Positions 10,344 through 53,957 of a DNA stretch of 64,000 nt are shown here, piece after piece. The DNA is taken from assembly GCA_965214775.1 (NCBI GenBank), contig OZ243974.1:2752001-2816000 (forward strand). Direction: 5' to 3'. Source of the stretch: Nitrosopumilus sp. (GTDB lineage Archaea; Thermoproteota; Nitrososphaeria; Nitrososphaerales; Nitrosopumilaceae). Every line of letters begins with the position of its first letter. Position 1 is the first letter of the stretch. Both the position numbers and the translations under genes were made by a program. Below the pieces are notes generated by a model that saw only the letters and a program-made list of their open reading frames with translations, did no database searches and was not told the origin of the DNA.

Positions 10344-10640
10344 AATTTCAAAATCAGGGATTTTACGAGAACAGTTGGTCCTCATAACAGAGGATGATAC
10401 ACAGGGCGATTTTCCTTGCATCCTAGCAGAAAAAGAGAGCCAAAAAGAGAGTACGGCAGAAAATGGCATCCTACTGCTGCCGCCATCATCATCATCATCA
10501 TCAATAGCAGCAGACACCAGATCCGTCATGGAAACATCCACGAAATTTGGCGCAAAGACAGATAATTATTGAGCCATATCCGGCGATTGAGCGGCAGAAC
10601 GATGGAAACATCCACGAAATTTGGCGCAAAGACAGATGCC
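10333..10640 (+). pseudogene. aroA: Decayed 5' remnant of EPSP synthase
   Basis: Lies between aroK and aroC. Frameshifted pieces read (ACG)SCRISKS...HRAI.LAS/LAEKES...ADTRSVMETSTKFGAK, resembling the AroA N-terminus; the rest is missing. Confidence 0.75.
10528..10637. repeat. 36-bp exact direct repeat flanking a 38-bp unique insert
   Basis: ATGGAAACATCCACGAAATTTGGCGCAAAGACAGAT at 10528-10563 and 10602-10637. Confidence 0.92.
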
Positions 10641-10988
10641 ATCAAACAAGACCGTTTTGCAAAAAAATCAGATAAAAAAATGGAGATAAAGAGGCGCGAC
10701 CCTGTATAGAGGAATGAAAAGCCTTCTCTTCACCCTCAACGCCTTTTGCGTATACAACATGCCTTTTTCGCAGAGCCGCGCAAACTATGCGTTAAAAATT
10801 GCATGTTTTTCCATATATCGTATGAGTTATCATCATATTTAAGAATATATTGTAAATATTTGATATAATCAGACTAGTTATTGTAAATTTTAAAGATGTG
10901 TAGATATTGATGAAAAGGATGGCAGTTACGCAAAAGTTTTTCAAATTTTTCAGAATGAGGAATTATAAGCATCATCTTGCAACGATAG

Positions 10989-12086
10989 GTGTTGCCCGGA
11001 AGTTCTATTGGCCACCGCCTTGTTCTAACCAGTTTTGGAGAGAGTCACGGAAGAACAGTCGGAGCGGTTCTAGACGGGTTTCCGGCAGGACTAGAGGTTG
11101 ACGAGAAAGACATCCAAGGAATGTTAGATCAGAGAAGGCCCGGTCAGAACCTAATCTCAACGCAAAGAAAAGAGGGGGACGTCGTAGAAATTCTCTCCGG
11201 AGTTTTCAGAGGACATACAACAGGTGCCCCAATTACAATGTTGGTCTGGAACGGTGATCAAAAATCAAGGGATTATGAAAATTTGAGGACAAAGCTTCGT
11301 CCAGGTCATTCAGATTATCCTGCAATGATAAAGTACGATCACCAAAACGACTACAGAGGGGGCGGAAGGTTTTCTGGAAGAATGACGGCTACACACGTAA
11401 TGGGAGGGGCCCTTGCAAGAAAACTTCTCAAGGTGACACTAGGAATCGAGACAAACTCGTTTACATCACAGATTGGAAAGGTGAGGATGGGCAGAAGATT
11501 CAACGGTAAAATGATTGACTCTATTTATAAAAACGATGTAAGGTGTCCTGAAACTAGAATTGCAAAGATAATGAGGGAGAAGATTTTAGAGGCAAAAAAG
11601 AGGGGGGATTCGCTTGGAGGAATAATCGAATCGGTTACAACAAACGTTCCCGTAGGATTGGGTGAGCCGATCTTCAACTCCCTAGAGTCTGATTTGAGCA
11701 GGGCGATGTTCTCCATTCCATCTGTAAAGGGCGTGGAGTTTGGTTCAGGGTTTGAAGGCGCTGAACTATTTGGCTCAGAGAACAATGATTTGTATACAGT
11801 AAAAAGGGGAAAAATTGTTACAAGGACAAACAATTCAGGCGGAATCCTGGGAGGCATCTCCAACGGCATGCCAATTACAATGAAAGTTGCATTCAAGCCA
11901 GCATCATCAATTGCTCAAAAACAGAGCACAGTAGACATCAAAACCAAGAAAGAAACAGTATTACAGGTCAGGGGAAGGCATGACCCCTGTGTTGTGCCCC
12001 GGGCCCCGCCTGTTGTCGACTCCCTAGTTGCACTAACCATAGCAGATCACGCGTTATTGGCAGGAGCAATCAAGCCGGTACTGTAA
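10989..12086 (+). CDS. aroC: Chorismate synthase
   Basis: FGESHG, RPGHSD, GGGRFSGRMT, NNSGGILGGISNG, GRHDPCV. Confidence 0.97.
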   Translation: MLPGSSIGHRLVLTSFGESHGRTVGAVLDGFPAGLEVDEKDIQGMLDQRRPGQNLISTQRKEGDVVEILSGVFRGHTTGAPITMLVWNGDQKSRDYENLRTKLRPGHSDYPAMIKYDHQNDYRGGGRFSGRMTATHVMGGALARKLLKVTLGIETNSFTSQIGKVRMGRRFNGKMIDSIYKNDVRCPETRIAKIMREKILEAKKRGDSLGGIIESVTTNVPVGLGEPIFNSLESDLSRAMFSIPSVKGVEFGSGFEGAELFGSENNDLYTVKRGKIVTRTNNSGGILGGISNGMPITMKVAFKPASSIAQKQSTVDIKTKKETVLQVRGRHDPCVVPRAPPVVDSLVALTIADHALLAGAIKPVL

Positions 12087-12089
12087 GAA

Positions 12090-13460
12090 ATGTCCGACAT
12101 TGAAGGCCTGAGAGACAGGATGGACAGAGTGACAATCGAGATGGTAAAGCTGCTCAAGACCAGAACAGAGATTGCAAAGGAGATAGGGGAGGTAAAAAAG
12201 ACCATGGGCAAAGGCGTCACAGATGAATCAAGAGAAAACAACCTGCGCAAAAAAACGATTTCGTTGTGCAATGAGATCGGATTGGAGGAAACGATTGCCA
12301 CCAAATTCCTAAACTTTTTGCTAAACGAATCGGTAAAGGTTCAATCAGAGAACAGACAGACACATCTCTCTGTTTTCTTAAAAGCCAAATCACTAGAGCA
12401 GAAAGGAAAAAGAATCATACACATGGAGGTAGGAGAGCCTGACTTTTTGCCACCTCAAATTGTCAGACATGCGTTAAACGAAGTGTTTGACAGGGGCTTT
12501 CTCAGATATGGCCAGGCAAAAGGAATGCCTTCATTTAGGGGGGCACTGGCAAGATACGCCACGAGGAAATTCAAACATGATGTTTCTGAAGAGGAGATCA
12601 TCGTAAGTCCCGGTGCACGGTTTTCCATATTTGCCGCAATCACAACCCTGCTTAACCCGGGAGACGAGATGGTCATAATCGAACCTGCATGGCCCGCATA
12701 CAAGGACTGTGCGTTGAATGCAGGAGTCAAAGTCAGGGCAGTCAGCACGACACTTGAAGACAGATGGGAGCCAAGCTTAGAAGAGATCAGATCAGCAGTC
12801 AACGCAAACACAAAGATGATAGTGCTAAACTATCCCAACAATCCAACCGGAAAGATTCTTCCAGAAAAACTGCTAGACGGCACAATCCAAATTGCAAAAG
12901 AAAACAACCTGTATGTCCTAAGTGATGAAATTTATTCAGAATATGCAAAAAGCAGCTGGAAGAGCGTCCTAAGGTACGGGTATGACAAGAGTATCGTCAC
13001 CCAGTCATTTTCAAAATCTCATGCAATGACAGGATTCAGAATCGGTTATGCCGTTGCAGACCCCAAGATAACAGAAAAGATGGCAGAATTAGTGGCATTG
13101 TGTCTTACTAGTGTTTCTGAGCCAGTCCAATACGCTGCCATGAGGGCACTGGGGGCAGACACATCCAACAACTCTAATACGGTGCAAAACAGACTAGAGA
13201 TGTTGGCAGAAAAAGCTCAAAAAATGGGACTGGAATTTGTGATCCCTGACGGGGCAATGTACCTTTTTGCCAGGGTAAACCAAGAGGGATTTGACGGCGT
13301 GAGGTTTGCCAGCAGTGCGCTCCAAAATGGATTGGCAGTTGCCCCGGGGGAGGGATTTGGGGATTATCGGGATTTCATCAGGATTTCAGCATGTCAAGAC
13401 GAAAAAACACTAATTGAAGGGATGAATATATTGAGTAATATGGTGGGAGATAACCAATGA
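12090..13460 (+). CDS. Chorismate mutase fused to class I PLP aminotransferase
   Basis: N-terminal CM-like helices (LRDRMDRVTIEMVKLLKTR); NYPNNPTG, SDEIY, SFSKSHAMTGFRIGY. Confidence 0.9.
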   Translation: MSDIEGLRDRMDRVTIEMVKLLKTRTEIAKEIGEVKKTMGKGVTDESRENNLRKKTISLCNEIGLEETIATKFLNFLLNESVKVQSENRQTHLSVFLKAKSLEQKGKRIIHMEVGEPDFLPPQIVRHALNEVFDRGFLRYGQAKGMPSFRGALARYATRKFKHDVSEEEIIVSPGARFSIFAAITTLLNPGDEMVIIEPAWPAYKDCALNAGVKVRAVSTTLEDRWEPSLEEIRSAVNANTKMIVLNYPNNPTGKILPEKLLDGTIQIAKENNLYVLSDEIYSEYAKSSWKSVLRYGYDKSIVTQSFSKSHAMTGFRIGYAVADPKITEKMAELVALCLTSVSEPVQYAAMRALGADTSNNSNTVQNRLEMLAEKAQKMGLEFVIPDGAMYLFARVNQEGFDGVRFASSALQNGLAVAPGEGFGDYRDFIRISACQDEKTLIEGMNILSNMVGDNQ

Positions 13461-14347
13461 AGAAGAATGTGAAGAAGATGAACAACGGCAACAGCGAAAA
13501 GAAGGTGACAGTCATAGGCGCAGGGGGGCAAATGGGCCAGTGGTTTACAAGATATTTTGCACGCAAGGATTTTGAGGTAACGGGCTATGATTCTGAGAAC
13601 AAGGTATCAGGCAAAGACATCATTCAGGCCGAATCACTCGTAGGCGCAATCCTAAAGGCAGACTATGTCGTGTTATGCACGCCTACAAGAAGGACGCCGG
13701 AGATCATCAGGCTGATTGCAAAAGAGATGAAACGGGGAACGTATCTGATTGAAATCTCTTCAGAAAAATTCAAGGTCGTCTCATCGCTATCAAAAATGCC
13801 TGCAAAAATCAATCCAATTTGCATTCATCCAATGTTTGGCCCAGGCATCAAGACGATAAGGGGGCAGAACGTCATTTCAGTTCCGATCAGGGATGCAAAA
13901 AAAGAGTTGGCCGTTGCAAAATCACTGTTTGAGGGGGCAAACTTTGTTACGATTGACGCAGCCGAACATGACAAAAAGATTGCAGTGATTTTAGGACTGA
14001 CTCATTTGATGAACCTGGTATTTGCAAACATTGTTTCAAAGGACGAGAAGATGCTGCTGACAGAAAAGATGTCCGGAACTACTTTCAGGGTTCAAAAGAC
14101 ACTGGCCGAAAGCATAATGACAGAATCCCCGGAATTGATCGAGACGATCATTGCAAATCCAGAGATTAGGAGGGTTGCCGAAGAACTATGGAAGGACATC
14201 GGACGGCTGCTTACTGCAGTACAAGAGTCAAAGACAGAGGAGATCATAAACTACATCAAGGATTGCCAGGAGAGGTTAGGAAAGCATACAGACGTTAACG
14301 AATCTTACAAAAAGATGACCAGAATGGTCAAAGCCGTTGAAAAATAG
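13457..14347 (+). CDS. tyrA: Prephenate dehydrogenase
   Basis: IGAGGQMG, IHPMFGP, EHDKKIAVILGLTH. Confidence 0.9.
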   Translation: MKKNVKKMNNGNSEKKVTVIGAGGQMGQWFTRYFARKDFEVTGYDSENKVSGKDIIQAESLVGAILKADYVVLCTPTRRTPEIIRLIAKEMKRGTYLIEISSEKFKVVSSLSKMPAKINPICIHPMFGPGIKTIRGQNVISVPIRDAKKELAVAKSLFEGANFVTIDAAEHDKKIAVILGLTHLMNLVFANIVSKDEKMLLTEKMSGTTFRVQKTLAESIMTESPELIETIIANPEIRRVAEELWKDIGRLLTAVQESKTEEIINYIKDCQERLGKHTDVNESYKKMTRMVKAVEK

Positions 14348-14352
14348 CGGAA

Positions 14353-14757
14353 ATGCGCTCAACAAAGATCGTCACTTCATTTATCACAGATAACGGCAAG
14401 CTGCTAATCCTAAAGCGAAGCGGCAGGGTAAAGACCATGAAGGGGTTGTGGGCAGGAATTAGCGGCATAATAGAAAAAAACGAAGAGCCGCTTCAGCGTG
14501 CAAAGATCGAGATTTTCGAGGAAACGGGGATTCCCGAAGAGGACATCACACTGGTCAAATCGTCCCAAAAAATCATGGTGGACTCGCCGCAATACGAAGA
14601 TCACGAATGGGAGATTTTTCCATTTTTGTTTGAATCAAGAAATCCGATCATCAGGCTGAACTGGGAAAATTCGGACTTTAGGTGGATTGATGTCAGCGAG
14701 TTGGAAAATTATGAAACCGTCCCTAGCCTGCAAAGGGTGTTACTCAGCTTGCTGTAG
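14353..14757 (+). CDS. NUDIX hydrolase
   Basis: Nudix-like box GIIEKNEEPLQRAKIEIFEETGI; LNWEN. Confidence 0.88.
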   Translation: MRSTKIVTSFITDNGKLLILKRSGRVKTMKGLWAGISGIIEKNEEPLQRAKIEIFEETGIPEEDITLVKSSQKIMVDSPQYEDHEWEIFPFLFESRNPIIRLNWENSDFRWIDVSELENYETVPSLQRVLLSLL

Positions 14758-16068
14758 TTTTTTGTTTTCCTGGTCATAGTCTTTCTGTTGTGGAAGCATC
14801 ATGTATACACATGCGCCGCCGCACATCGTACAGGGGACGTTGTTTCCAGGATGCTGGCCTGCCCTGCCATGAATTTTTGCCGCCTCCTCAGGATCAATGG
14901 ACAGTGCCAGCTGCCTTTCCCAGTCAAGGGTCCGGCGGGCTTCAGTCATTGCCATGTCCCATTTGATGGCTTTTTCCCTGATCTTTACGAGATCTCCTGC
15001 ATGTGCAGCTATTCTGTATGCAATCAATCCTGCTTTTACTTCTTCGGCATTGGGCAACGCCAGGTGTTCTGAGGGGGTAAGATAGCACAACAGATCGACT
15101 CCCTCGCTTGCAGAAACTGCAGCGCCGATTGCGCTTGCAATGTGATCATGGCCTGATGCAACATCAGTTACAAGTGGTCCCAGAACATAGTAGGGCACAT
15201 CGCCAATCAATGATTTTGCCAGCCTGACATTTGCTGCAACCTCGTTTAATGGAACGTGTCCCGGGCCTTCGACCATTACCTGGACGTCCTGTTCGTGAGC
15301 CCGCTTGGTCAGTTGTGAGATGTTTATCATTTCTTGTACCTGCAGTTCGTCATGAGAGTCCAGAATCGAGCCGGGCCTCAGGGCATCCCCAAGGCTGAAC
15401 GTGACGTCGTATTTCCTTGCAACCTCGATCAGATAGTCGTAATGGGTAAGGTACGGGTTTTCTTTGTCATGCTTTAGCATCCATGCAGCAGTAATGGTCC
15501 CGCCCTTGCTAACTACGCCTCCATGTCTTTGGACTTTTAGGATTCTTTTTGCGATATTCCTTGTTATGCCGCAATGAATCGTGGTATAGTCCACGCCATC
15601 CTTTGCGTTGTTTTCAAATGCCTTGATATAGTCATCTTCAGTTAGATTCAGCGGGTTTTTGTGAACCTCAACTCCATAGTTGTATGCCTCGTAGATTGGA
15701 ACGGTTCCAAACGTTATCGGTGCGGCATCCAGCAGCGTCTGTCTGATCCTTTTTACATCGCCACCGTCACTGAGATCCATGATGGTATCAGCGTGATACT
15801 TTACTGCAACTCTTGCTTTTTCAATCTCCCCATCCAAGTTGACATTTAGTGTCGAGGTGCCAATGTTTACGTTGACCTTGGTTTTCAGGCCTTTGCCAAT
15901 TCCCACATTGTGAATTTTTTGAGGTCTTGCATTATTGCTCGGGATAATGATTGAGCCTTTTGCGATTTTTGAAACTAGCCAGCCAATGGAAACATCCTCG
16001 TCTTTTGCAACTTGTTTCATTTGATCAGTTGCAATACCCCTGCGAGCTGCTGTCATCTGTGTTGCCAC
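14740..16068 (-). CDS. thiC: Phosphomethylpyrimidine synthase ThiC
   Basis: KVNVNIGTS, SLGDALRPG, EGPGHVP, EHLALP, CTMCGGAC. Confidence 0.97.
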   Translation of the reverse strand: MATQMTAARRGIATDQMKQVAKDEDVSIGWLVSKIAKGSIIIPSNNARPQKIHNVGIGKGLKTKVNVNIGTSTLNVNLDGEIEKARVAVKYHADTIMDLSDGGDVKRIRQTLLDAAPITFGTVPIYEAYNYGVEVHKNPLNLTEDDYIKAFENNAKDGVDYTTIHCGITRNIAKRILKVQRHGGVVSKGGTITAAWMLKHDKENPYLTHYDYLIEVARKYDVTFSLGDALRPGSILDSHDELQVQEMINISQLTKRAHEQDVQVMVEGPGHVPLNEVAANVRLAKSLIGDVPYYVLGPLVTDVASGHDHIASAIGAAVSASEGVDLLCYLTPSEHLALPNAEEVKAGLIAYRIAAHAGDLVKIREKAIKWDMAMTEARRTLDWERQLALSIDPEEAAKIHGRAGQHPGNNVPCTMCGGACVYMMLPQQKDYDQENKKLQQAE

Positions 16069-16194
16069 AAGTAATCTCTAGGCTCACCTGATTTAAACAT
16101 CGTTGAGCCGCCGCAAGCAAATGACCGCAAAATGCAGGGCACTATATTAGGCAGATGGATCGATCTTATATGCAAGAAATGGCAATAGTTCACC

Positions 16195-16293
16195 ATGAGA
16201 TCAATTAGGGAGTGCAAGCATTGCGGAAGAGAGTTTTACAGCATAAGGGATGACTTTTGTTCTTTTGACTGTGTGTCTCAGGCATCATCCTGA
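16195..16293 (+). CDS. Small zinc-finger-like protein (32 aa)
   Basis: MRSIRECKHCGREFYSIRDDFCSFDCVSQASS; CxxC...CxxxC; below the ORF-track cutoff. Confidence 0.6.
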   Translation: MRSIRECKHCGREFYSIRDDFCSFDCVSQASS

Positions 16294-16639
16294 TTTTATG
16301 GCTGCAGTTATTTGTATGGACAGGCGTCTCTCGGCCTGAATTTTAGGTTCTACTCAAGACAGGCTCAATCATGCCCAGTTTGATCAGGAGAATTTTTGAC
16401 TACCGCTAATTTCAGATTCTCCGGACTGGTTCCAACTCTGCAAAACGCAATGGGGTAGTGTCCAAGTCTCATTTTCTTTTTCAAAAAAAATGTTTTCGGA
16501 GGTTTGCCCGATCTTATGGTTTTGGATTAAAAATAATTGTCAACGCAGTACCGTAGTCAACTCATAAAAAAACGGACTGTAATTTTGACATATCGTGCCT
16601 ATGTCGATAAAAAATGTTCAGATTTCAACTGTGCGTACT

Positions 16640-18174
16640 AGACTTTATGCGTAATCGACCGTGATTAAAAATTCCGTAGGCTTTTCCAAACGCAAATGCG
16701 CTGATCGGATCAAATTACCGCATGCATCTCGTGTCATGACGCACGTAAAAGCCAGTTGCGCCAAAAGAACGTGCGCAACCATGCAGCACGGCAATGTGCC
16801 CCTTTGACAAGTCAGAAAGAATGGCGGTCCGTGCCGCCGTATGTCATGTGTCTGGCAGCAGATGCAGCTGCTGCAGCAGCTGGCCATAGTGTTTTTTCCT
16901 TTTCAGCATAGTCTTGAGGTTCTCAAGACCCGTGATTATCTGCATGAAATAGTTTAGATCCTTGGCAGTTCCGCCAAACGGCATGGTAAGAATGCCATAT
17001 CTTTTGAGCCGCCCTATGTGGTGCTCCACTCTGACGCGGACCCTGCTTATCTGCTTGCGGCGCCTCTTTTGCGTTGCAGTAAGATCCCCGTCCCTGGGCT
17101 TCTTTGGGGGCTGCCTGTGTATGGCGCCCGGAAGCATCTTTTGAATGCCCTCAAATCCCAGGTCGCTGAAAACGACAAACGCCTCTTCCGGATCGTCTGC
17201 GTTTTTTGCATTCCTCATTGATCCGGTGTGCCTTCCAAAGTCCGGGCCGCCCCCTGCGTTCATCACGCCCTTGTCGTTGACGCTTCCGTCCACAGTCTTG
17301 CCGCAGTGCAGTATGAGGCCGTCCAGGTTCGAGGTAATTATCGTGTTGAACATGTGCCGCTTTTTTCTTCCCGAGTATCTGGTCTTTCTTGCGGTCCTGT
17401 CCCCGGGCCTGTCTACCGGAGTCAGGGTGCCGTCAATCAGGAGCGTCTTTTTTGGGATCAGCACCTCCTCCAGCTTGCCTGCCGGGGTCTTGCAGATGAT
17501 GCTTGTTAGCTTTTCGGAGGCAGGCAGGAGATGGCGCAGTAACACGGCACCGTACCGGAGGTACCTGGACATTGTGGACTGGTCGACGTCAAATGTCGCG
17601 GCCAGATGATGCTGCGTTGCCTTGGTCCTTATGCTCATGAGTACTGCAAGCAGCGCGTGCCTGATGTACAGCTTGCACCGGTTTCCGGCATCGCCGCCTC
17701 TTACGTCGTCCTCCCAGAACAGGGGTCTGTCCTCGTCGTCCATGACTTCTTCCGTAAAGCGCTCCAGTATGATCTCAAATGACTCCTTTGTGCATCCCGT
17801 GACGTTGCGAAGGCGCACCGGATCGCCGATTATGCCGTCTGCAACCTCGATTGCGTGCATCCGCAGAGGCGTCCCGCCGCGCACGACTCTTTTTGTCTTG
17901 TTTTCTTCGGACTGCCACAGCGAGTCCTCAAACGCAAGCTGCTTCCTCATACGCTCGTTTTGCTTGGACATCTGTTTGTTTTGCTTGGATACCTGCTCGT
18001 GTTGCTCGACTAGCATCTCGTGTTGCGCTTGTAACGCTTGAAATGCTTGGAGAGTCTTGTCATTTGAGCCCATACAGTCAGGGAATCATACAGATCTTTA
18101 GGGTTGTTGGTGTGCAAATAATGATCTATTGTGTCGTATTTTTAGATCAGATGGGCCGATTACGCATAAAGTCT
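16640..18174 (-). mobile_element. IS5-family (ISL2-like) insertion sequence, copy 1
   Basis: TIRs AGACTTTATGCGTAATCG / CGATTACGCATAAAGTCT, 3-bp TSD ACT. Confidence 0.92.
16844..18073 (-). CDS. IS5-family DDE transposase (HTH_Tnp_4/DDE_Tnp_4 type)
   Basis: LIDGT, YSGRKK, DLGFEG, RVRVEHHIGRLK. Confidence 0.92.
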   Translation of the reverse strand: MGSNDKTLQAFQALQAQHEMLVEQHEQVSKQNKQMSKQNERMRKQLAFEDSLWQSEENKTKRVVRGGTPLRMHAIEVADGIIGDPVRLRNVTGCTKESFEIILERFTEEVMDDEDRPLFWEDDVRGGDAGNRCKLYIRHALLAVLMSIRTKATQHHLAATFDVDQSTMSRYLRYGAVLLRHLLPASEKLTSIICKTPAGKLEEVLIPKKTLLIDGTLTPVDRPGDRTARKTRYSGRKKRHMFNTIITSNLDGLILHCGKTVDGSVNDKGVMNAGGGPDFGRHTGSMRNAKNADDPEEAFVVFSDLGFEGIQKMLPGAIHRQPPKKPRDGDLTATQKRRRKQISRVRVRVEHHIGRLKRYGILTMPFGGTAKDLNYFMQIITGLENLKTMLKRKKHYGQLLQQLHLLPDT

Positions 18175-18402
18175 ACTATGTATGCACTACGACACGAAGG
18201 CAGATGCACAGGCTTTTACGTGTCAATCAAGCCAAAGCGCATCCACCTCAACAGGGTTTATCCGAAAAAGTATTTCCGTAGTCAGCAGCTTCAATTCTAA
18301 ATCCTTGCAGAAAGGGATTGATCTTATCATGACTGAATTCAGTGTTGAACTGGACCCCGTATTTTCGAACCACTTTTTGGGCATTTTTGAGTAGCTCTGA
18401 CA

Positions 18403-19499: not shown

Positions 19500-21034
19500 A
19501 GACTTTATGCGTAATCGACCGTGATTAAAAATTCCGTAGGCTTTTCCAAACGCAAATGCGCTGATCGGATCAAATTACCGCATGCATCTCGTGTCATGAC
19601 GCACGTAAAAGCCAGTTGCGCCAAAAGAACGTGCGCAACCATGCAGCACGGCAGTGTGCCCCGTTGACAAGTCAGAAAGAATGGCGGTCCGTACCGCCGT
19701 ATGTCATGTGTCTGGCAGCAGATGCAGCTGCTGCAGCAGCTGGCCATAGTATTTTTTCCTTTTCAACATCGTCTTGAGGTTCTCAAGACCCGTGATTATC
19801 TGCATGAAATAATTGAGATCCTTGGCAGTTCCGCCAAACGGCATGGTAAGAATGCCATATCTTTTGAGCCGCCCTATGTGGTGCTCCACCCTGACGCGAA
19901 CCCTGCTTATCTGCTTGCGGCGCCTCTTTTGCGTTGCAGTAAGATCCCCGTCCCTGGGCTTCTTTGGGGGCTGCCTGTGTATGGCGCCCGGAAGCATCTT
20001 TTGAATGCCCTCAAATCCCAGGTCGCTGTAAATCACAAACGCCTCTTCCGGATCGTCTGCGTTTTTTGCATTCCTCATTGATCCGGTGTGCCTTCCAAAG
20101 TCCGGGCCGCCCCCTGCGTTCATCACGCCCTTGTCGTTGACGCTTCCGTCCACAGTCTTGCCGCAGTGCAGTATGAGGCCGTCCAGGTTCGAGGTAATTA
20201 TCGTGTTGAACATGTGCCGCTTTTTTCTTCCCGAGTATCTGGTCTTTCTTGCGGTCCTGTCCCCGGGCCTGTCTACCGGAGTCAGGGTGCCGTCAATCAG
20301 GAGCGTCTTTTTTGGGATCAGCACCTCCTCCAGCTTGCCTGCCGGGGTCTTGCAGATGATGCTTGCTAGCTTTTCGGAGGCAGGCAGGAGCCGGCGCAGT
20401 AACACGGCACCGTACCGGAGGTACCTGGACATTGTGGACTGGTCGACGTCAAACGTTGCGGCCAGATGATGCTGCGTTGCCTTGGTCCTTATGCTCATGA
20501 GTACTGCAAGCAGCGCGTGCCTGATGTACAGCTTGCACCGGTTTCCGGCATCGCCGCCTCTTACGTCGTCCTCCCAGAACAGGGGCCTGTCCTCGTCGTC
20601 CATGACTTCTTCCGTAAAGCGCTCCAGTATGATCGTAAATGACTCCTTTGTGCATCCCGTGACGTTGCGAAGGCGCACCGGATCGCCGATTATGCCGTCT
20701 GCAACCTCGATTGCGTGCATCCGCAGAGGCGTCCCGCCGCGCACGACTCTTTTTGTCTTGTTTTCTTCGGACTGCCACAGTGAGTCCTCAAACGCAAGCT
20801 GCTTCCTCATACGCTCGTTTTGCTTGGACATCTGTTTGTTTTGCTTGGATACCTGCTCGTGTTGCTCGACTAGCATCTCGTGTTGCGCTTGTAACGCTTG
20901 AAATGCTTGGAGAGTCTTGTCATTTGAGCCCATACAGTTAGGGAATCATACAGATCTTTAGGGTTGTTGGTGTGCAAATAATGATCTATTGTGTCGTATT
21001 TTTAGATCAGATGGGCCGATTACGCATAAAGTCT
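19500..21034 (-). mobile_element. IS5-family (ISL2-like) insertion sequence, copy 2
   Basis: Same TIRs as copy 1, 3-bp TSD AAT. Confidence 0.92.
19704..20933 (-). CDS. IS5-family DDE transposase, copy 2
   Basis: 409 aa, a few substitutions relative to 16844-18073. Confidence 0.92.
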   Translation of the reverse strand: MGSNDKTLQAFQALQAQHEMLVEQHEQVSKQNKQMSKQNERMRKQLAFEDSLWQSEENKTKRVVRGGTPLRMHAIEVADGIIGDPVRLRNVTGCTKESFTIILERFTEEVMDDEDRPLFWEDDVRGGDAGNRCKLYIRHALLAVLMSIRTKATQHHLAATFDVDQSTMSRYLRYGAVLLRRLLPASEKLASIICKTPAGKLEEVLIPKKTLLIDGTLTPVDRPGDRTARKTRYSGRKKRHMFNTIITSNLDGLILHCGKTVDGSVNDKGVMNAGGGPDFGRHTGSMRNAKNADDPEEAFVIYSDLGFEGIQKMLPGAIHRQPPKKPRDGDLTATQKRRRKQISRVRVRVEHHIGRLKRYGILTMPFGGTAKDLNYFMQIITGLENLKTMLKRKKYYGQLLQQLHLLPDT

Positions 21035-24469: not shown

Positions 24470-24474
24470 CTGAT

Positions 24475-24581
24475 GCCACAAACTCCTTTCTCTGTCTGTC
24501 CATGCATATGTCGTCATTACGACACTCCCCATCCCTCGAATAGTTAGGCCACAAACTCCTTTCTCTGTCTGTCCATGCATA
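24475..24581. repeat. 35/36-bp exact direct repeat flanking a 37/38-bp unique insert
   Basis: GCCACAAACTCCTTTCTCTGTCTGTCCATGCATAT(G) at 24475 and 24548; the second copy completes to 36 bp when the MITE at 24582-24706 is removed. Confidence 0.9.
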
Positions 24582-24706
24582 TCAGTACTTCCTAGGTGTA
24601 CTTTTACAGGCACGGTAATTACGTAATTTGGAGAAGATCTTATGCGTAAACGAAGTTAGCGGCTATGGCGTGCCGGGTCTGCAAAAACACATCTAGGAAG
24701 TACTGA
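24582..24706. mobile_element. MITE (125 bp) with TA duplication, IS630-type
   Basis: TIRs TCAGTACTTCCTAG / CTAGGAAGTACTGA, both flanked by TA. Confidence 0.82.
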
Positions 24707-24966
24707 TATGCGTATTCCTTGCCTGATCTAAATCTTTGGATCAAAAATAGTTGTCAAAATCGTCCATTTTTTTATGTGTTGACTATGGTGGAGGCGGCCT
24801 GAGGCGAATTAGGCGGCAATCTCCCTCCCCCTCCCCCCTCGGGGGTCACCTGCCATATTCACCTCCTTGCAATACATAGGACGCCTGCCAGTACAGAACA
24901 TACCTCAACAAACTCTGCAACAGAAAAAATGGAAAGGCAGATTAGGCAAGGTGCGCAAAAAACAGC

Positions 24967-43265: not shown

Positions 43266-44303
43266 ATGGAAAACATGGCAAAGGGTTTGCTGTTTGCCGA
43301 TTACCGATTGTACAACTATCAGATTGCGTGTCCGGTCTGCGGCCGTTTAAGGGACGTTCAAAGAACTGATTTTTGGTGGTCTCTCAAGTACCCAAAGGTA
43401 TCTGCGTTTTTGATGCCATACCGGCTGAATAACGTCACGTCGTTTCTCCGCACCCTGCCGGACTTTCTGATAATAGGCATTGCCAAGTCAGGAACCACAT
43501 CACTGTACGGCCTGATAAGCGCGCATCCGAACGTGGTTCCGGCACGGGTCAAGGAGGTGCACTATTTTACCGATTCACGGCATTATGAGATGGGTACGCT
43601 GTGGTACCGCGCCAAGTTTCCAAGCGTATTGTACAAACGCTGGCTTGCCCTACGGCGGCACGGCCAAAAAATACTGTCCGGCGAGGCATCCTCCACCTAT
43701 TTGTTCCACCCGATGGTACCTGGCAGGGCCAAGGCACTGCTTCCCGATGTCAAGCTGATCGTGATACTGCGCAACCCCGTCGACCGTGCCTACTCTGAAT
43801 ATCACATGCAGATCAGGGATCGATACGAGTCGCTGACATTTGAGGATGCAATAGAGGCAGAAAAAGACAGGATCTCATACGAGATGGAAAGAGTCAGATC
43901 TGATCCGCAATTTTATTGGAGCAACCTGCACCATTATTCCTATCTGCAAAAGGGACATTATGCAGAACAGCTGACTCGCTGGTTCAGATACTACGACAAA
44001 GACCGGTTTCTCATCCTGACCATGGAGGAACTAGAGGCAGATCAGCGGGGCGTACTTGACCGGGTCTTTGAGTTCCTGGGACTTGAGCCGTTTGATGTAA
44101 GCGGCCTTGACTCCTTGCCGAGTCATTCGTGGACAAAGCAATTCATACGCAAGCCGTCCGATGAGACTGATCGTGGGTTGTTAAACGCATACAGTTACGG
44201 CGCGATGAAGCCCAAGACGCGTGCAATGTTGCTGGATTATTTCAAGCCCCACAACAAACGGCTGTCTGAACTCTTGCAGCGTGACTTTGACTGGGACAGA
44301 TGA
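43266..44303 (+). CDS. PAPS-dependent sulfotransferase
   Basis: IGIAKSGTTSL (5'-PSB), KEVHYF, LRNPVDRAYS (3'-PB), DYFKPHNKRLSELL. Confidence 0.92.
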   Translation: MENMAKGLLFADYRLYNYQIACPVCGRLRDVQRTDFWWSLKYPKVSAFLMPYRLNNVTSFLRTLPDFLIIGIAKSGTTSLYGLISAHPNVVPARVKEVHYFTDSRHYEMGTLWYRAKFPSVLYKRWLALRRHGQKILSGEASSTYLFHPMVPGRAKALLPDVKLIVILRNPVDRAYSEYHMQIRDRYESLTFEDAIEAEKDRISYEMERVRSDPQFYWSNLHHYSYLQKGHYAEQLTRWFRYYDKDRFLILTMEELEADQRGVLDRVFEFLGLEPFDVSGLDSLPSHSWTKQFIRKPSDETDRGLLNAYSYGAMKPKTRAMLLDYFKPHNKRLSELLQRDFDWDR

Positions 44304-45092: not shown

Positions 45093-45113
45093 ACATGGTT
45101 ACTAGGCCAAAAA

Positions 45114-45377: not shown

Positions 45378-45385
45378 GTAATCTT

Positions 45386-45592: not shown

Positions 45593-45643
45593 GCGAATTC
45601 TTCCAATGCTGACAATTTAAACCTTAAAGAATTTGCTTATAAG

Positions 45644-46708: not shown

Positions 46709-46802
46709 GAATTTGCTTATAAGAGCGGAGATATGTGGTCGCCTGCCCCTCCTACCAATCAGGCACAAATTGGTATGTGCAACTATATGGTCTTCGTGCC
46801 TA

Positions 46803-47427: not shown

Positions 47428-50400
47428 GTACAACTTCAGGTCCTTTTTATACTGACAGTCAAACATTTTTGGGCAGCATCTTATGATCAGATGCCCCTGC
47501 GAACATGGCTGAACATCAGACATTTGTGATCAGATATTGCAGGTTTGGAATTTACGGGAGTGACATAATATCGGCATCTTGGTCAAAGAATTTCGATGGA
47601 AATCTTTTTTGATCTTGCCTGTCTGATGTAACATATGGACTCCAAAGCCGTGCTTGCACACTGTACGGATCCTGGAAAGGCACTTGTCATGATCATGGAG
47701 CAGGATGAGAAGATCTCCGGGCTGGAAAAAGAACTCTCTATTGTCAAGAAGGAGAATGCTGATGTCAAGAAGGAGAACTCTAAGCTCCGGGCAAGGCTTG
47801 CCCTGTACGAGAGTCCCAACATGCCCACGTCCACGCCGTCATTATACAATGATGCCAGAAGAAAGTTCAGGGAGAAAAGGGGCGAGGATCCCGGCGGCAG
47901 TCCCGGCGATGCTGCTCGGGGCAAGAAACGCGGCCCTCCGTGCGGACACCATGGTACATCGCACGGCAACCGGCCATCCATGACATTAAGGTACGATCTT
48001 GGCTCCAAAATATGCCCAAAGTGCAACATCCAGTTACGGATGCTCAAGCCGATCCACAAGCTTGTCAACGACCTAGATGACTCCATGCGCATGCTCACTG
48101 CCAATGCCATCATCCAAAACGCGGTGTGTCCACAGTGCAATACCGTGCATGTCGCAGCTACCCCGTTTCTAAGCGGCACGTCACTTGGGCCCGTCTCACT
48201 CTCTCTAATCATGATGTTCTTTGAGAAGGGAAACACAGACGAGGACATTGCAGAGTACTTTCAGTATATGTTTGGATTCAAGATGGCCCCAAATACCGTG
48301 ACTGCCGCCCGGCACGCAGTGGCAGAGGCGATTCAACAAAACATGATACAACGCATACAGTCATTCATTGCGGGCAGGCCGTGGATACAGATGGACGAGA
48401 CCGGCTTTAAGCGCGGCGACGGACACATGGGATACGTCTGGGTGCTCAACTGCGAGGGGGCGTGTTTTGTGGTCTTTGCAGATTCCCGGTCCTCCGAGGT
48501 ACTGCACACGCACTTTGGATGGCTGGATCCCAAGACTCCCATAGTCGTAGACGGGCTGGCCCAGTACAAGCTGTTCTTTGTGACAATCCAGAGGTGCTGG
48601 AGGCACCTTCTGGCATATGCAGAAAAGCTTGCAGTAAAGATGCCCGAAGGCGATAACGAGAAAAGGTATGACTTGCTGCTGGAATTTTACAGGAAGATAG
48701 ATAAAATCAAGACGCTTGCGCCGCTTACATGCATGGAGCTTTCCAGGGAAGTATACAAAATAATCAACCCGTATGAGGACGTTCACGTGCGTAGTATCCT
48801 CGGCTACCAATTGATCACAAAAAGGACAATTTTTTTCAACCAAAGGATCTAAGAGCTATTAGTCCCATATATACACATGAAAGGAAAGAAGGAATTACCG
48901 ACGGGAACAGCGTTCCTGTACGGGATAGCAAGCAAGGACGAGCTTTTTAGGATGCACAAGTCCGAGAAGGACGCCAAGGCGGCAATCCGGCTCCTTGCAT
49001 ACCACATGAGAAAGTGCGGCGCGAGCATATATGATATTGCCGAGAAGCTGAGCAGGCCGTATGGAACCGTACGATACTGGCTGGTGCGTGCGCACAAGCA
49101 TGGCCTGGAGGGCAGGTTTGACATAAAGCATGGCGCCCCGTGCAGGCTCGACAAGAAACAGCTTGAACGGCTGCGCGCAGACCTGATCAAGGGCCCGGAC
49201 AACTGCGGCTTTAAGGCCACAACATGGACAGGGCCGCTGGTCATTGCCCACGTCAAAAAGAAGTTCGGCATCACGTATGCAGAAACGAGCATGTACGACC
49301 TGCTGCACAGAATCGGCTTCTCATGCAGAAAGCCCAGGCCAAAACACCCAAAATCAGCCTCAGAATCCGAGAAAAAGGAGTTCAAAAAAAAAGCTAGGCA
49401 GAGCGCAAAGTACTATTCAAAAAAGGGGTACACGGTAATGATAGGCGACGAGTCCATGTTCATACTGGGATGGAACGTCAAGAACAGCTGGTACCCCGTA
49501 GGAGAGCCGGTCTATACGCCCGTCAGCCTGTCTAGGAAGCGGTTCTATGTCATAGGGGCCCTCTCAAGAAACAGGTTTGACTATCGCTTTTACGAAAAGG
49601 CCAACACGGGAACATTCTACAAGTTTCTCAGGACACTGCGCCGCAAGTACGGCAAGGTGTTGTTGTTTGTCGACAACGCATCGTACCACAAGTCAGCAGA
49701 ACTCAATAGAAAGATGGCCAAGTGGAACGGGGACGTGGTGCTAAAGTACCTGCCGCCGTACGCGCCGGAGCTTAACAACTCGGAGGGGCAGTGGCGCGGG
49801 TTCAAAAAGGCGACTTCAAACTGCCTTTACAAGACCGTCAAGGAGATGCAGAGATCACTGCGCAGTATGACGCGCAGGGGCGAGATAAAGGTGGTAAAGA
49901 TGAACAAATGGCTGACGTAGATACTACGTACACACCTGCTAAACGCCATACATGACATGTTTACGTGTCTGGCGCATCGGGGAATGCCGCTGCACAACAA
50001 CGATACGGAGCGGTGCATACGCGACGGGATCATACCACAACGCAATGCTCGCCACAAGATCGTAACTGACGGCGGAAGAAAGACGGCTTCTGCACTGCTG
50101 ACGTTCTCGATGACATGTCGCAAGCAGAATATACATCCTGCCGGCGGACTTTTGAAATACCTGCGGAATCCGGGCTGGGATATCTTTGCAGAAGCAGGAG
50201 ATGATGATGATAATGCGCGCCTGCTGTCCTCGCTTGTCAATACGGACGGTACAAGATACAGCGTCTTTGAGTGTCCCGGGCCGCCGCCGGTGTGGCCGCC
50301 TGTAGTCGATGATGACGCAGGCAGCAGAGGAGGAGCGGTACGCCGGAACCGGACGGCCGTCGTACCAGTAGTAGCAGCTCCGATAGTAACAACATGATCC

Positions 50401-50676
50401 GTCTGGCGCCTACGGGACGGCGTAACCCGTAGCTTCATATCCAAAGATCTGACCGTGTAGGCAAGTCTGCCAGTCAACAACGCCTGACAAATCTGACAAT
50501 GCTGGTTTCCTGCAGGTGCCGTCTGCCAATAATCTGTTGTCTGCGCGCTGCCGGTCTTGCATATACAAGGGACGTGTGGTGATGATGTAGCGGGTCTGTC
50601 ACAGCAGATGCGGAAGGATCAAAAAGTTCCGGGCAAAAAGTTCCCTAGTCAGTATAAAAAGGACCTGAAGTTGTAC
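47428..50676 (+). mobile_element. IS66-family element (single-ORF type), transposase 47635-50397 interrupted by IS630 B
   Basis: Perfect 29-bp TIR GTACAACTTCAGGTCCTTTTTATACTGAC; QMDETG, QRCWRHLL, HNNDTERCIR. Confidence 0.92.
48792..49926 (+). mobile_element. IS630 element B, copy 2, intact (transposase 48877-49920)
   Basis: GDES, VDNASYH, PELNNSE; ends TAGTATC/GATACTA flanked by CG. Confidence 0.93.
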
Positions 50677-51116
50677 AATTTTCATATGAAACATAATCCT
50701 TAATTGATTTTTAGCCCTTCTTTCTGTCTGGTTTCGTGATTCCTTTTCTTACAAGCCTGTTGTGCCGCATCTTGCGATTCGTCTCAAAGGATAACTCGGG
50801 AGCTGCCAGATCGGTTCTGGTATTCGGGCGCTTGTTTTCCTACAAGCAGCCAGCACAGCCTTCCAAGATCCCGGCGATTTGCTCAGAATCATGCTTTAGC
50901 AGCGATTCAAAGTCTCCTGCATGCCCTCGACAAATCCCTGCAATTTTACAAGCTTTGAGCTTTGGAATTTTGCATCCGTGTGCCTCTTTTGAGGCATCTG
51001 CGGTTGGCGGCTTGGCAAACCCTCTAAAACGCCTGTCACGTTACGATGGCGCCTTCTTTTGCCACCAGACCTGAACGCCTCTGAGAACCAAAATGCACGA
51101 CGTTTTGCAGAATATT

Positions 51117-51533
51117 TCAGGTGCTGCTTTTGATGCGCATGATCTTGGTTTTATCCATGACGACCCAGTATTCGACATTTTGGCCGTTCTCCAACCTGTC
51201 TTTTACCTCGTCATCAATCATGGACACATCGATGGTCTCAAAGGTTTCAGAATCCATCACTTGGACCGTATCACCATTAATTGAGATGATCTGGCCGACC
51301 TTTTTGTTGATCATGGGCACGTGAATCTGCATGCTGACCGGCCCCACATGAGGCCTCTTTTGGCCATCAAAGATTCCCTCGGCAACAATTCTTGCCTTTG
51401 CCGCCCCGTGTTTTCCGGGTTTTGACGTATCATATTCTACAATCCTGCACGGTTCGCCACTTGGCTGATCAGAATGCGGCAGCAAAATGTATGACCCGAT
51501 TTTTAGCGAACCAAGGTCAGAGGGTTTGCTCAT
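51117..51533 (-). CDS. eif5a: Translation factor aIF5A
   Basis: SKPGKHGAAK hypusine motif. Confidence 0.97.
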   Translation of the reverse strand: MSKPSDLGSLKIGSYILLPHSDQPSGEPCRIVEYDTSKPGKHGAAKARIVAEGIFDGQKRPHVGPVSMQIHVPMINKKVGQIISINGDTVQVMDSETFETIDVSMIDDEVKDRLENGQNVEYWVVMDKTKIMRIKSST

Positions 51534-51567
51534 GAAAAGGCAGGTTTTTGTCGAATATTTAACTTTT

Positions 51568-52179
51568 CTACTTTAGCTGATCAAGAAGAGACAGGCTTAT
51601 CAGATTTGTCATTGTCAGTCCCTTTCTGTTTGCATCCCTTCGGGTTTGCTCACAGTATTTTTTCACGCTTTGATGGCTCTTTTTGCTGGCCACCTCGATT
51701 ACGACGATATTATTTGAATAGGGAAAAGTGAATCTTGAAGGAGTAGTACAGTACGTCTTCATGTTTCCCAGGCCGGCCTTTTCGATTTTTTCCCTTTTCA
51801 GCAAAAGATTTGCAATTTCCTGTAAATCCTCGCCTTCCTTGTCATACTCCAAATAGTAAACAGAGACAAAGTTGATTTCTCCCAATATTTCACGTTCAAA
51901 AAGATCGTCTTTGATATTGAATACAAAGGAGAGTTTTTCCTGATTGTGAGATTCCAAATCAGCATAAATTTTCGAACTGTCCTTAAATTTTGCCAAGAGA
52001 TAATGGTTGGTTGAATCTGAAAAAAAAGGCCTGCTGTCATCAGAGAATGTTCCGGTCACAAAATATAACGATTCAATATTTCTTGACTTTGTCCAGGAAT
52101 CTTTCAATTCCACTGATTCATGTGTGTGAAGGTATGGCGCGCACACATACCCAGAATAGGACATTTCCAGTTCAGACAC
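51568..52179 (-). CDS. Hypothetical protein
   Basis: 203-aa ORF with backbone composition. Confidence 0.75.
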   Translation of the reverse strand: MSELEMSYSGYVCAPYLHTHESVELKDSWTKSRNIESLYFVTGTFSDDSRPFFSDSTNHYLLAKFKDSSKIYADLESHNQEKLSFVFNIKDDLFEREILGEINFVSVYYLEYDKEGEDLQEIANLLLKREKIEKAGLGNMKTYCTTPSRFTFPYSNNIVVIEVASKKSHQSVKKYCEQTRRDANRKGLTMTNLISLSLLDQLK

Positions 52180-52288
52180 AAGTCAACCTCAGCGCTGGTG
52201 AGTATTTATGCCTATTCAGAATTCTACGATCATGAGATCGGCTTGCCTACAATGGTTTTTTAATAGCAGGGATCTTCGTTTTTCTTGT

Positions 52289-52415
52289 CCCGTGGTAGCT
52301 CAGCCTGGTAGAGCTTCCGGCTGTAGTTGTTGGCTTTAGATGGCTTACAGAACAACAGCATATCAGGCATACAGAAACCGGGTTGTCGGTGGTTCAACTC
52401 CGCCCCGCGGGACCA
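52289..52415 (+). tRNA. tRNA-Tyr(GTA) with ~50-nt intron at 37/38 (52327-52376) and encoded CCA
   Basis: Acceptor CCCGTGG/CCGCGGG-A-CCA, D arm TAGCTCAGCCTGGTAGAGC, anticodon CT-GTA-G, T loop GGTTCAACTCC. Confidence 0.95.
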
Positions 52416-52453
52416 TCAATCAAGTTTAAACCCTCAGCCTGCATACCATAAGT

Positions 52454-53800
52454 ATGAAGCCACCTGCAAAGGCAGTCACAAAGAACAGGGTTGCCAAAAA
52501 TCTTGATGAAAAATTGGACATCCACGGATATGACAAGATCCTACAAAGAGTATGGAGGCAGATCAAAGACGACCTGCCCGAGTACGTGGAGATGTACCAG
52601 AAATACGAAGACTTGCTGGTCACCCAGTCAAAGTCAAAGTCGTCGAAGATCAACAACATGAGAAACCTGTTATCACTGGGAAGAATCCTGAAGTCCAAAG
52701 GGTATGGCTGGCAGACAATCACCAGAGAACAGGTGGTGGATGTTCAGGCCTACATCATGAGGACATGGGCAGATGCAGACGGAAAGGAGACATGGCATAC
52801 GTCAGATCACAAGAAATTTCTGATGCTGTTTGTGAGATGGCTGAAGACCGGCAAGAGAGAATACGACAAGAAGATACCAGAACCGGAGGAGATTCTTGAC
52901 ATCACGATCAAAAGAGTGGGACAGAAACTCACAAGAAACGAGCTGCTAAAGCAGGGCGAGATCAGCGAGCTTCTTGAGGCGTGCGGGGACAACCTAAGGG
53001 ACAAGGCCTTGATCTCAGTTCATGCCGAGGCCGGGGACAGGGCAGGTGAAACACTGAACATCCGTATCGGGCATGTGACGTTTTTGAACAACGGCGGCGC
53101 CGTGATTCGCGTAAATGGTAAGACGGGAAAGAGGGATGTCCACCTGGTAAAATCCGTTCCGGAATTATCGGCATGGATCAACTCGCATCCAAGAAAAAAG
53201 GACAGGTTTGCGCCGTTGTGGCTGGACAGGTACGGTAGTTTTCTCAGCTATCCGGGGGCCAGGGCCGTTTTCAAGAGGCGTGTGAAGATGGCCATACGAA
53301 GCGCCGAGAATGTGGGAAAGGCCAGCACCCTGAGCGACAAGCGCGTGTTCATGACGCTATTCAGGCATACTGAAATCACAAACAACGCCAAATGGATGTC
53401 GTCCCAGCTGTCAAAGAAGAGGCACGGATGGACCCCGGATTCGGACGTGATTGCAAACTATGAGCATCTGATAGATGACGACGTGCAGAATGCGACGTTT
53501 AGTCACTACGGGCTGGAGGTCGAAAAATCAAGGGAGGACGAGGAATGCATGCCAAAGGTCTGCAACGTCTGCAAGAAGCACAACTCCTCGACGTCGATAC
53601 TTTGCGAGCAGTGCGGCAGGGCTCTGACGCTGAAGGACGCAATCGAGATCGAGGAAAAGACGGCAGTGGAAAAGGAGCAGACCGACGACGAGGTCAAGAG
53701 ACTCGAGCAGGTGACTGCCAACCAGGGCAAGAGGATGAAGATAATGGAGGAGAAGCTGGACGCCCTGACTGAAATCCTAAAGCAGCAGGGCAGTCACTGA
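52454..53800 (+). CDS. Tyrosine recombinase/integrase with C-terminal zinc ribbon and coiled coil
   Basis: GDRAGE (R), GKTG (K), TLFRH, RHGW, ANYEH (Y); CNVC..CEQCG; directly downstream of the tRNA. Confidence 0.92.
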   Translation: MKPPAKAVTKNRVAKNLDEKLDIHGYDKILQRVWRQIKDDLPEYVEMYQKYEDLLVTQSKSKSSKINNMRNLLSLGRILKSKGYGWQTITREQVVDVQAYIMRTWADADGKETWHTSDHKKFLMLFVRWLKTGKREYDKKIPEPEEILDITIKRVGQKLTRNELLKQGEISELLEACGDNLRDKALISVHAEAGDRAGETLNIRIGHVTFLNNGGAVIRVNGKTGKRDVHLVKSVPELSAWINSHPRKKDRFAPLWLDRYGSFLSYPGARAVFKRRVKMAIRSAENVGKASTLSDKRVFMTLFRHTEITNNAKWMSSQLSKKRHGWTPDSDVIANYEHLIDDDVQNATFSHYGLEVEKSREDEECMPKVCNVCKKHNSSTSILCEQCGRALTLKDAIEIEEKTAVEKEQTDDEVKRLEQVTANQGKRMKIMEEKLDALTEILKQQGSH

Positions 53801-53850
53801 CGTGTCACATATGCGACCATTCCCAAGATGTTTGCGGTCAAGAAATACGG

Positions 53851-53957
53851 TAGAGAATCAGTTGAGAGATGATTCGGAATTAGAAACCAATCCAAGTAAT
53901 CTCTTTCTTTTCCTCGATATTAGAAAATCAGTTGAGAGATGATTCGGAATTAGAAAC
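53851..53957. repeat. 37-bp direct repeat (1 mismatch) flanking a 33-bp insert; CRISPR-like mini unit
   Basis: TAGA(G/A)AATCAGTTGAGAGATGATTCGGAATTAGAAAC at 53851-53887 and 53921-53957. Confidence 0.88.

Follow-up and report, generated by a model that had tools for sequence, protein, structure and literature searches.

Isolated duplications with the dimensions of CRISPR repeat-spacer units in a Nitrosopumilus chromosome: a probable natural record of off-target Cas1-Cas2 integration

Off-target "neo-CRISPR" loci were reportedly described in 2018 by Nivala, Shipman and Church in Escherichia coli, where Cas1-Cas2 of a type I-E CRISPR system was overproduced and oligonucleotides were supplied. Off-target acquisition is also said to have been proposed by Shmakov et al., in 2020, as one origin of arrays located away from cas genes. 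Casposons, with sizes of kilobases, carry terminal inverted repeats and produce target duplications of about 14–15 bp. Elements of this kind are described in Candidatus Nitrosopumilus koreensis (PMC8464041). A preprint which cites the 2018 work calls the evidence from natural genomes "circumstantial" and refers to two other species. Cas1-Cas2 of Pyrococcus furiosus integrates into repeat-like off-target sites in vitro, according to PMC6698737. In this work we have analyzed a 64,000 nucleotide (nt) stretch of DNA from Nitrosopumilus sp., which we will call the window. It corresponds to positions 2752001–2816000 of a single 2,833,656-bp contig with 47% G+C (OZ243974.1, genome G000). Three loci in the window show a target sequence duplicated on both sides of a short insert, and the same structure is found in many other places of the chromosome. 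We will call these structures scars. They are very probably the result of off-target (non-canonical) CRISPR spacer integration by Cas1-Cas2.

The scars resemble the neo-CRISPR loci of E. coli, as described in papers which cite that work: a fragment with the size of a spacer lies at a chromosomal site which is not a CRISPR array, and a target with the length of a repeat is duplicated. A neo-CRISPR site, according to the same sources, can take a further spacer, and a mini-array with three target copies is found here at 1266837–1267014. On the other hand, the events in Nitrosopumilus are natural, they are kept in assembled genomes and they correspond to an archaeal type I-B-like system. They also extend what those sources report, with 42 pairs plus the mini-array, six pairs in a congener, empty sites and protospacers in the same genome. 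As in the study of P. furiosus (PMC6698737), archaeal Cas1-Cas2 alone would have acted on non-CRISPR DNA, and off-target sites reveal intrinsic preferences. That study was carried out in vitro with plasmids, whereas our events are retained in chromosomes, their likeness to the native repeats is at the random level, and only positions from about -3 to +7 around their ends are biased. The arrays considered by Shmakov et al. were apparently found through their CRISPR-like repeats; the scars have unrelated "repeats", which standard CRISPR finders would miss. Canonical type I-B acquisition shares with the scars the module (Cas1, Cas2, Cas4) and the sizes of the duplicated unit and of the insert, but the scars have no leader, the duplicated unit is specific of each locus, there is no clear protospacer adjacent motif (PAM) and many inserts are derived from the genome itself. 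Casposon integration also combines strand transfer by a Cas1-family protein with target-site duplication. Nevertheless, scar inserts are mostly 33–39 nt, duplications are 36–37 bp and the genome has a CRISPR-type Cas1 only. In our literature search we came across no description of such scars, in tens, in a natural genome; supplements and subscription journals were outside the search, and a prior description is possible. As far as these searches show, the scars are an unusually rich natural case of a known mechanism, rather than a new mechanism, and their novelty lies in the size of this natural record.

All three loci in the window have the structure A-B-A, where A is a direct duplication of 36–37 nt and B is an insert of 33–38 nt. 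Their features are as follows, in window coordinates and with no strand assigned:

10528..10563: locus 1, target copy A1, 36 nt, inside the aroA remnant, at about residues 51–62 of the EPSP synthase of relatives
10564..10601: locus 1, insert, 38 nt, with no match elsewhere in the genome
10602..10637: locus 1, target copy A2, 36 nt, identical to A1
24475..24510: locus 2, first target copy, 36 nt if G24510 is counted
24511..24547: locus 2, insert, 37 nt, a copy of genome positions 2615428–2615464 with 36 of 37 aligned nt identical
24548..24582: locus 2, second target copy, whose 36th base is G24710, split off by a later miniature inverted-repeat transposable element (MITE)
24583..24709: MITE of 123 nt with terminal inverted repeats (24583–24705) plus ATAT target duplication, younger than the spacer-like event
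53851..53887: locus 3, first target copy, 37 nt, overlapping with the beginning of a dispersed element, a repeat of about 70–95 nt
53888..53920: locus 3, insert, 33 nt, with no full-length match in the genome
53921..53957: locus 3, second target copy, 37 nt, with 1 mismatch to the first copy

A previous reading of the window, which we will call the original prediction, had pointed out three duplications of about 36 bp with 33–38-bp inserts, and both a reading of the sequence and a repeat search bear this out. The three repeats are indeed unrelated local sequences, as it had stated: each scar has its own duplicated target. In locus 2, positions 24475–24509 and 24548–24582 are identical 35-mers; if the MITE and its ATAT are excised, G24710 adjoins the second copy and a 36-nt repeat is obtained. 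In none of the three loci is A2 followed by B, and the window holds no other scar. Locus 1 lies inside an aroA remnant, as predicted, and relatives keep an intact 422 amino acid (aa) EPSP synthase gene between the same neighbours. The location of locus 3, after an integrase linked to a transfer RNA (tRNA), also stands, with a tRNA match of 43 bits in Rfam and a weak Phage_integrase match in the open reading frame (ORF), 24.3 bits for a cut-off of 27.1. The original prediction explained these loci as short fragments written by Cas1-Cas2, or by another Cas1-like integrase, at chromosomal sites, an explanation now supported by the dimensions of the scars, by the adaptation module of the genome, by empty sites and by self-derived inserts. 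Together with the native repeat length, these were points which it had proposed to check. The results agree with it in these points, as described in the following paragraphs.

A scan of direct repeats in the chromosome shows a sharp peak of exact lengths at 36–39 nt, which is due in part to two native CRISPR arrays. Isolated pairs were searched with a length of at least 28 nt, no more than 2 mismatches and a period of 40–199; native arrays, low-complexity sequences and tandem arrays were excluded. The chromosome contains 109 such pairs, and in 38 of them the period is 72, 73 or 74, an excess which chance does not give. The remaining bins of 4 nt hold mostly 0–8 pairs. The exceptional bins are those with 7 pairs at period 75 (six of them a single family internal to an insertion sequence, IS), 5 pairs at 82 (a repeated element) and 13 pairs at 156–159. 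Some pairs were dropped from the set of events. They include the six-copy IS-internal pair (period 75, 34 nt, 2 mismatches; 113943, 228016, 794568, 1521943, 1531675, 1590841), four short pairs of 28–29 nt (200048, 801292, 1405649, 2378877), the pair at 90701 (duplication/insert 44/26), pairs with at least 3 mismatches (1690978, 2133530) and all low-complexity or tandem coding repeats. Two more were rejected from the nature of their inserts, which in 2288313 is contiguous with A in other copies and in 2701975 (44/32) is the end of a repeat element.

The final set outside the native arrays consists of 42 isolated events and one three-copy mini-array. The distribution of periods is very narrow: 73 (14 events), 74 (12), 72 (11), 71 (3), 70 (1) and 76 (1), with almost no pairs at neighbouring periods. 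The exact duplication has 36 nt in 13 events, 37 in 10, 35 in five, 38 in four and 39 in three. Inserts range from 28 to 41 nt, with a mode of 36–38, and 34 of the 42 have 33–39 nt. The genome-wide length distribution is thus a sharp peak, with duplications mostly of 36–37 nt and inserts mostly of 36–38 nt. The usual split of the period is found in 37 events; the other five have duplication/insert lengths of 43/30, 46/28, 44/28, 32/40 and 31/41. When the boundaries are fixed by the protospacer, the duplication has 36 nt (1266906, 1900928, 2725140, 2744112) or 37 nt (2297249). The mini-array at 1266837–1267014 has three copies of its target, the first of which differs by an indel and a mismatch, and two different inserts of 36 and 37 nt. 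It is the only ectopic locus of this kind, and two more events (1266242 and 1267835) are found within 1.6 kb of it. It may represent a site which has been used twice, a nascent array.

The native arrays have similar dimensions. Array 2 (about 2420150–2425043, minus strand) has 68 copies of a 37-nt repeat and adjoins the cas locus; its spacers have mostly 33–37 nt, and the most frequent lengths are 35 (25 spacers), 34 (16), 36 (12) and 37 (5). Array 1 (1977219–1978062) consists of a 36-nt repeat in 12 copies, with 6 mismatches in the last one, and of spacers with 36–39 nt; no Cas matches were found among its ten upstream ORFs. The native repeats of 36 and 37 nt are equal to the main duplication lengths of the scars, and the scar period of 72–74 compares with a native array period of 70–75. 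A six-frame search detects a single Cas1 in the genome (2426073–2426972, minus strand), with 232 bits to PF01867 and no stops. Cas1, Cas2 and Cas4 exceed their NCBIfam cut-offs: the genome contains one intact module, in a type I-B-like locus beside the 68-repeat array. The operon contains Cas3 (HD and helicase), Cas5, Cas7, two proteins of 591 and 216 aa without matches, Cas1, Cas2 and Cas4, in this order, followed by the leader and array 2. The best partial matches of Cas5 and Cas7 are with type I-B models, below their cut-offs. Archaeal ribosomal protein genes are found on both sides of it. The closest Cas1 in the collection of species, with 52% identity, comes from a metagenome-assembled genome labelled Thaumarchaeota. 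We should also note that four of the first seven spacers in the leader-proximal part of array 2 (2424476–2424900) have odd sizes: 50, 30, 29 and 57 nt. The last one includes a decayed partial repeat. These odd spacers point to imprecise recent acquisitions or to a rearrangement at the active end of the array.

Empty sites, which have one A and no insert, are found as paralogous copies for 13 of the 42 loci, with at least 90% identity for nine of them. Many events are located in multi-copy IS elements, and the other copies of these elements align without a break across a construct with one A and no insert. For example, 48 empty-site copies reach at least 90% identity in the case of 2249808, and 15 copies do so in each of the cases 1266242 and 1929695. 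We found no empty site for window loci 2 and 3. In the case of locus 1, three congeners carry a single segment homologous to A in an intact EPSP synthase gene (about residues 51–62), flanked as in the window by a shikimate-kinase-like gene and the chorismate synthase gene. Among the first 14 nt in the locus 1 insert, 10 agree with the continuation of a relative. We have taken this agreement as due to chance, as the alternative needs several extra events.

The inserts themselves indicate that discrete pieces of DNA have been copied. Eleven of the 42, including that of window locus 2, match other places of the chromosome from end to end (all but at most 3 nt, with at least 94% identity), and five are exact over their full length. 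Examples are the inserts of 345230 (1393039–1393076, 38/38 nt), 1372070 (2405741–2405776, 36/36 nt), 1900928 (2358344–2358380, 37/37 nt) and 2725140 (2445016–2445053, 38/38 nt). The insert of locus 2, which can be counted as 37 or 38 nt, comes from 2615428–2615464, outside the window, with one mismatch (36/37 aligned nt, or 37/38 nt in the longer count), and the second insert of the mini-array is identical to IS copies (37/37 nt). The matches stop at the ends of the inserts, therefore the copied pieces have a discrete size of 35–38 nt. The situation is very different in the native arrays, where none of the 78 spacers has a full-length match in the genome and only four partial matches of 17 nt are found. 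Such a difference (11/42 vs 0/78) is what we would expect if self-derived spacers are lethal in expressed arrays and harmless at sites which produce no CRISPR RNA (crRNA). Self-derived inserts would persist in scars because no functional crRNA is made there, while self spacers in arrays would be removed by autoimmunity. Inserts do not form a sequence family: a 10-mer is common to only one pair among the 42, and their ends show no significant bias. TTN is found beside five of 14 protospacers, compared with 15% expected (p = 0.05). Of the ten protospacers which occur in a single copy, five are located less than 100 kb away from the locus formed by cas and array 2 (about 2.35–2.52 Mb), and one of these five is a weak match (88%). 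This zone is about 7.5% of the genome, and the binomial probability of 5/10 by chance is about 6e-4. The cluster may correspond to an acquisition hot spot around the active array, similar to the hot spot reportedly found beside the active array in E. coli, or to a mobile region. GC skew was uninformative for placing the cluster with respect to replication landmarks.

Duplicated targets share no words longer than 13 nt with each other. Nevertheless, the 84 ends, read from 5' to 3' into the duplication, show a weak but significant bias in composition at positions -3 to +7. The prevailing bases are G (34 ends) and C (22) at position 1, T (34) and C (30) at position 2 (p = 3e-5); A is scarce at positions -1 to -3 and abundant at positions 6–7. 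The commonest dinucleotides are GT (17), CT (11), TC (9) and GC (9). They agree with the starts of the native repeats on the two strands, which are GT and GT in array 2, CT and GC in array 1. A motif search over the targets in any orientation gives 8.1 bits, compared with 5.0–6.6 in 20 random controls. Targets also have a folding energy of -6.3 kcal/mol, while random 36-mers matched in G+C have -5.1 (p = 0.007). The original prediction had proposed a more definite motif, A at position 7 and TCC at positions 10–12, which is present in the three window loci and in none of the other 39 events. The resemblance to GTTTCAATCC-type repeat starts which it had suggested is not supported; this motif is confined to the three window loci.

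Other genomes of the genus allow a comparison of scars with the presence of Cas1. A Cas1-family match is found in 31 of the 80 other genomes sampled. One of them is G083 (1,699,898 bp, 33% G+C), whose related Cas1 (1582355–1583224) lies beside an array with 67 copies of a 36-nt repeat and a period of 70 (10), 71 (33) or 72 (20). This genome has six isolated pairs unlike its native repeat, with periods 69, 69, 71, 71, 71 and 73 and duplications of 35–37 nt. Two of the six inserts are exact copies of other places in the same genome, both of them distant from the array. The scar period follows the native period in both genomes: 72–74 and 70–75 in G000, 69–73 and 70–72 in G083. On the other hand, G010 (98% complete) has no Cas1 match, and it contains no pairs with a 33–40-nt duplication and a 32–40-nt insert in the 960,000 of its 1,360,076 bp which were examined. 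Both congeners examined, of which the first has Cas1 and the second lacks it, therefore agree with a co-occurrence of scars and Cas1. G083 also has a two-repeat mini-array (43914–44022) and a solo repeat (1512313–1512349) with a 37-nt repeat nearly identical to that of array 2 in G000. These repeats are far from its own cas locus, whose array has a different repeat.

Off-target integration may be pictured, on the basis of the established chemistry of Cas1-Cas2, as follows. Cas1-Cas2 carrying a prespacer of about 35–38 nt would perform two staggered strand-transfer attacks, about 36 (35–37) bp apart, on an ordinary chromosomal site; the normal place for these attacks is the junction between leader and repeat in a CRISPR array. 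Repair of the gaps would then double the 36–37 bp between the points of attack, giving target-insert-target. Several observations weigh against this explanation. The role of Cas1-Cas2 as the catalyst is inferred from co-occurrence in three genomes, one of them scanned over 71% of its length. Five events have an unusual split of the same period. The targets are no closer to the native repeats (on average 13.5 and 13.1 identical positions) than random 36-mers (13.0 and 13.4). In the comparison with the whole chromosome, 31 of the 42 inserts have no identified source. Exact searches with a 24-nt core of window insert 1 found no match in viral or metagenome contigs, and those with a 25-nt core of insert 3 found none in viral contigs; such searches miss diverged sources. 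There is no clear PAM beside the 14 protospacers, even if a gene for Cas4 is present. Locus 1 is only 64–73% identical to its congeners; at this identity the alignments show a single A, and either the insert or the downstream flank may continue the ancestral sequence. Finally, the commonest duplication has 36 nt while the repeat beside cas1 has 37 nt, and scar inserts, with a mode of 36–38, are longer than the spacers of array 2, with a mode of 35, and nearer to those of array 1.

These last differences speak for a minor alternative, which is that the scars were written by a second Cas1-Cas2 module, now lost, such as one serving array 1 with its 36-nt repeat, instead of the extant module. A duplication mode of 36 and an insert mode of 36–38 fit array 1 (36; 36–39) better than array 2 (37; 33–37), and array 1 has no Cas matches in its ten upstream ORFs. 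We consider a lost module improbable all the same. The six-frame search finds one Cas1 and no remnant of another. Identical copies in 35 of the 42 pairs indicate very recent events, so the enzyme should still exist. The scars of G083 follow its single array, which is adjacent to cas genes, and the stagger of off-target events need not match the repeat length exactly.

It is much less probable that the short fragments were captured by a non-Cas integrase or a mobile element which duplicates about 36 bp of its target. Such a mechanism would fit a genome with abundant IS elements and MITEs, the lack of a PAM in our search and targets which do not resemble CRISPR repeats. However, the inserts have no common family, termini or coding capacity, the dimensions coincide with the lengths of native repeats and spacers in each of two genomes with different periods, and no such pairs are present in the 0.96 Mb examined of G010, a relative without Cas1. 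We know of no transposase with a staggered cut of 36 bp.

Short-read data cover the window in part. The Logan contigs of runs X3 and X4 end at window position 10557 and resume at 10608, within the two A copies of locus 1, and none of the Logan contigs listed bridges or joins across this locus. Runs X1 and X2 cover the unique parts of the window at a depth of 1–3 only, and locus 2 is buried in multi-copy repeats. One might invoke a tandem duplication at the locus, or slippage during replication with later decay, or else an artefact of assembly, on the grounds that 1.5 copies of a tandem unit of 72–74 nt would also read as A-B-A and that no short-read contig bridges locus 1, where the contigs of two runs stop inside both A copies; this explanation hardly deserves credit, as B has been copied from distant loci with exact ends in many events (11 of the 42 with self matches), A2 is not followed by B in the window loci and paralogues lack B, the period is constant at 72–74 nt across unrelated sequences, the independently assembled G083 shows the same class, and a contig break at an exact repeat of 36 nt is expected of a 31-mer graph.

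Three other candidates were discarded. A canonical CRISPR array does not fit, as each locus has its own unrelated repeat without likeness to the native ones, and three copies are found at one locus only. A MITE or IS with a target-site duplication does not agree with inserts which lack a sequence family, with a single pair of the 42 sharing a 10-mer and with unbiased ends. Concerning casposons, the only Cas1 lies in the cas operon, the inserts have 28–41 nt and the duplications about 36 nt. The Cas1-family frames of 409–442 aa present in other genomes of the genus are likely casposases.

If we return to off-target integration by Cas1-Cas2, the scars appear to be young. The two copies of the target are identical in 35 of the 42 pairs, therefore the scars are recent, or else old ones are soon lost; all pairs together have 8 mismatches in 1552 nt, and only two degenerate pairs are found at the scar periods. 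In locus 2, a MITE which is 100% identical to other copies was inserted after the scar event. Scars are located in IS copies, remnants and genes. Among the five events in ORFs with more than 400 codons, four have the in-frame period of 72 (compared with 11 of the 42 overall), and three of these four keep the frame open, which points to a filter by selection. Nine of the 42 events lie between 1.2 and 1.4 Mb. The 20 kb examined in this zone contain an AbiE toxin-antitoxin pair, glycosyltransferases and sulfotransferases, and large ORFs of surface type. The events would be neutral or slightly harmful, with survival mainly in IS copies, in pseudogenes and in island genes which the cell can dispense with. 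Fixation of scars by drift, as the original prediction had assumed, is plausible.

Some other features of the window should be mentioned. The aroA remnant (10344–10988) has about 645 nt, and only about the first 60 codons are left; the shikimate-kinase-like and chorismate synthase genes beside it are intact. The MITE of locus 2 matches more than 160 other places of the genome, over about 100 nt and with up to 100% identity, thus it seems to be recently active. Short tandem repeats at 16855–16882 and 17953–18006 recur 2,860 nt further on, at 19715–19742 and 20813–20866, a sign of either a direct duplication of about 2.9 kb or two IS copies side by side. Between 16.3 and 24.8 kb, the contigs of the sequencing runs are 50–100 times deeper than in the flanks. 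The tRNA match at 52289–52412 has 124 nt, could hold an intron and was missed by ARAGORN. Directly downstream of it, a 448-aa ORF (52454–53800) has the weak Phage_integrase match; the two together (52289–53800) may be the border of an integrated element. A perfect tandem array is found at 54498–55145, with 4.9 copies of a 132-nt unit and 100% matches, in a minus-strand ORF of 749 aa (54491–56740) without a Pfam match.

In summary, we see an even chance that off-target integration by Cas1-Cas2 is a recurrent natural mutagen in this lineage, and at the same time an unselected record of what adaptation samples. If this is the case, integration breaks genes or adds 24 codons in frame, and it occasionally seeds a growing proto-array, as in 1266837–1267014. 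About a quarter or more of the captured fragments would be self DNA. In that case the scars would act as a fossil record of how naive adaptation proceeds and of what it costs, a record which cannot be obtained from the arrays, since these are purged of self-targeting spacers. The scars would also map in vivo, without any experiment, the targets which a type I-B integrase intrinsically prefers and the ruler it follows. The sample of unselected prespacers (11/42 self, compared with 0/78 in arrays) would bear on the capture of self DNA and on the strength of autoimmune filtering. The adaptation module would also have a fitness cost, the mutation of genes by insertion, and it would offer a possible route to new arrays. 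A scan of isolated direct repeats at the period of the native repeat plus spacer could reveal such records in many genomes.

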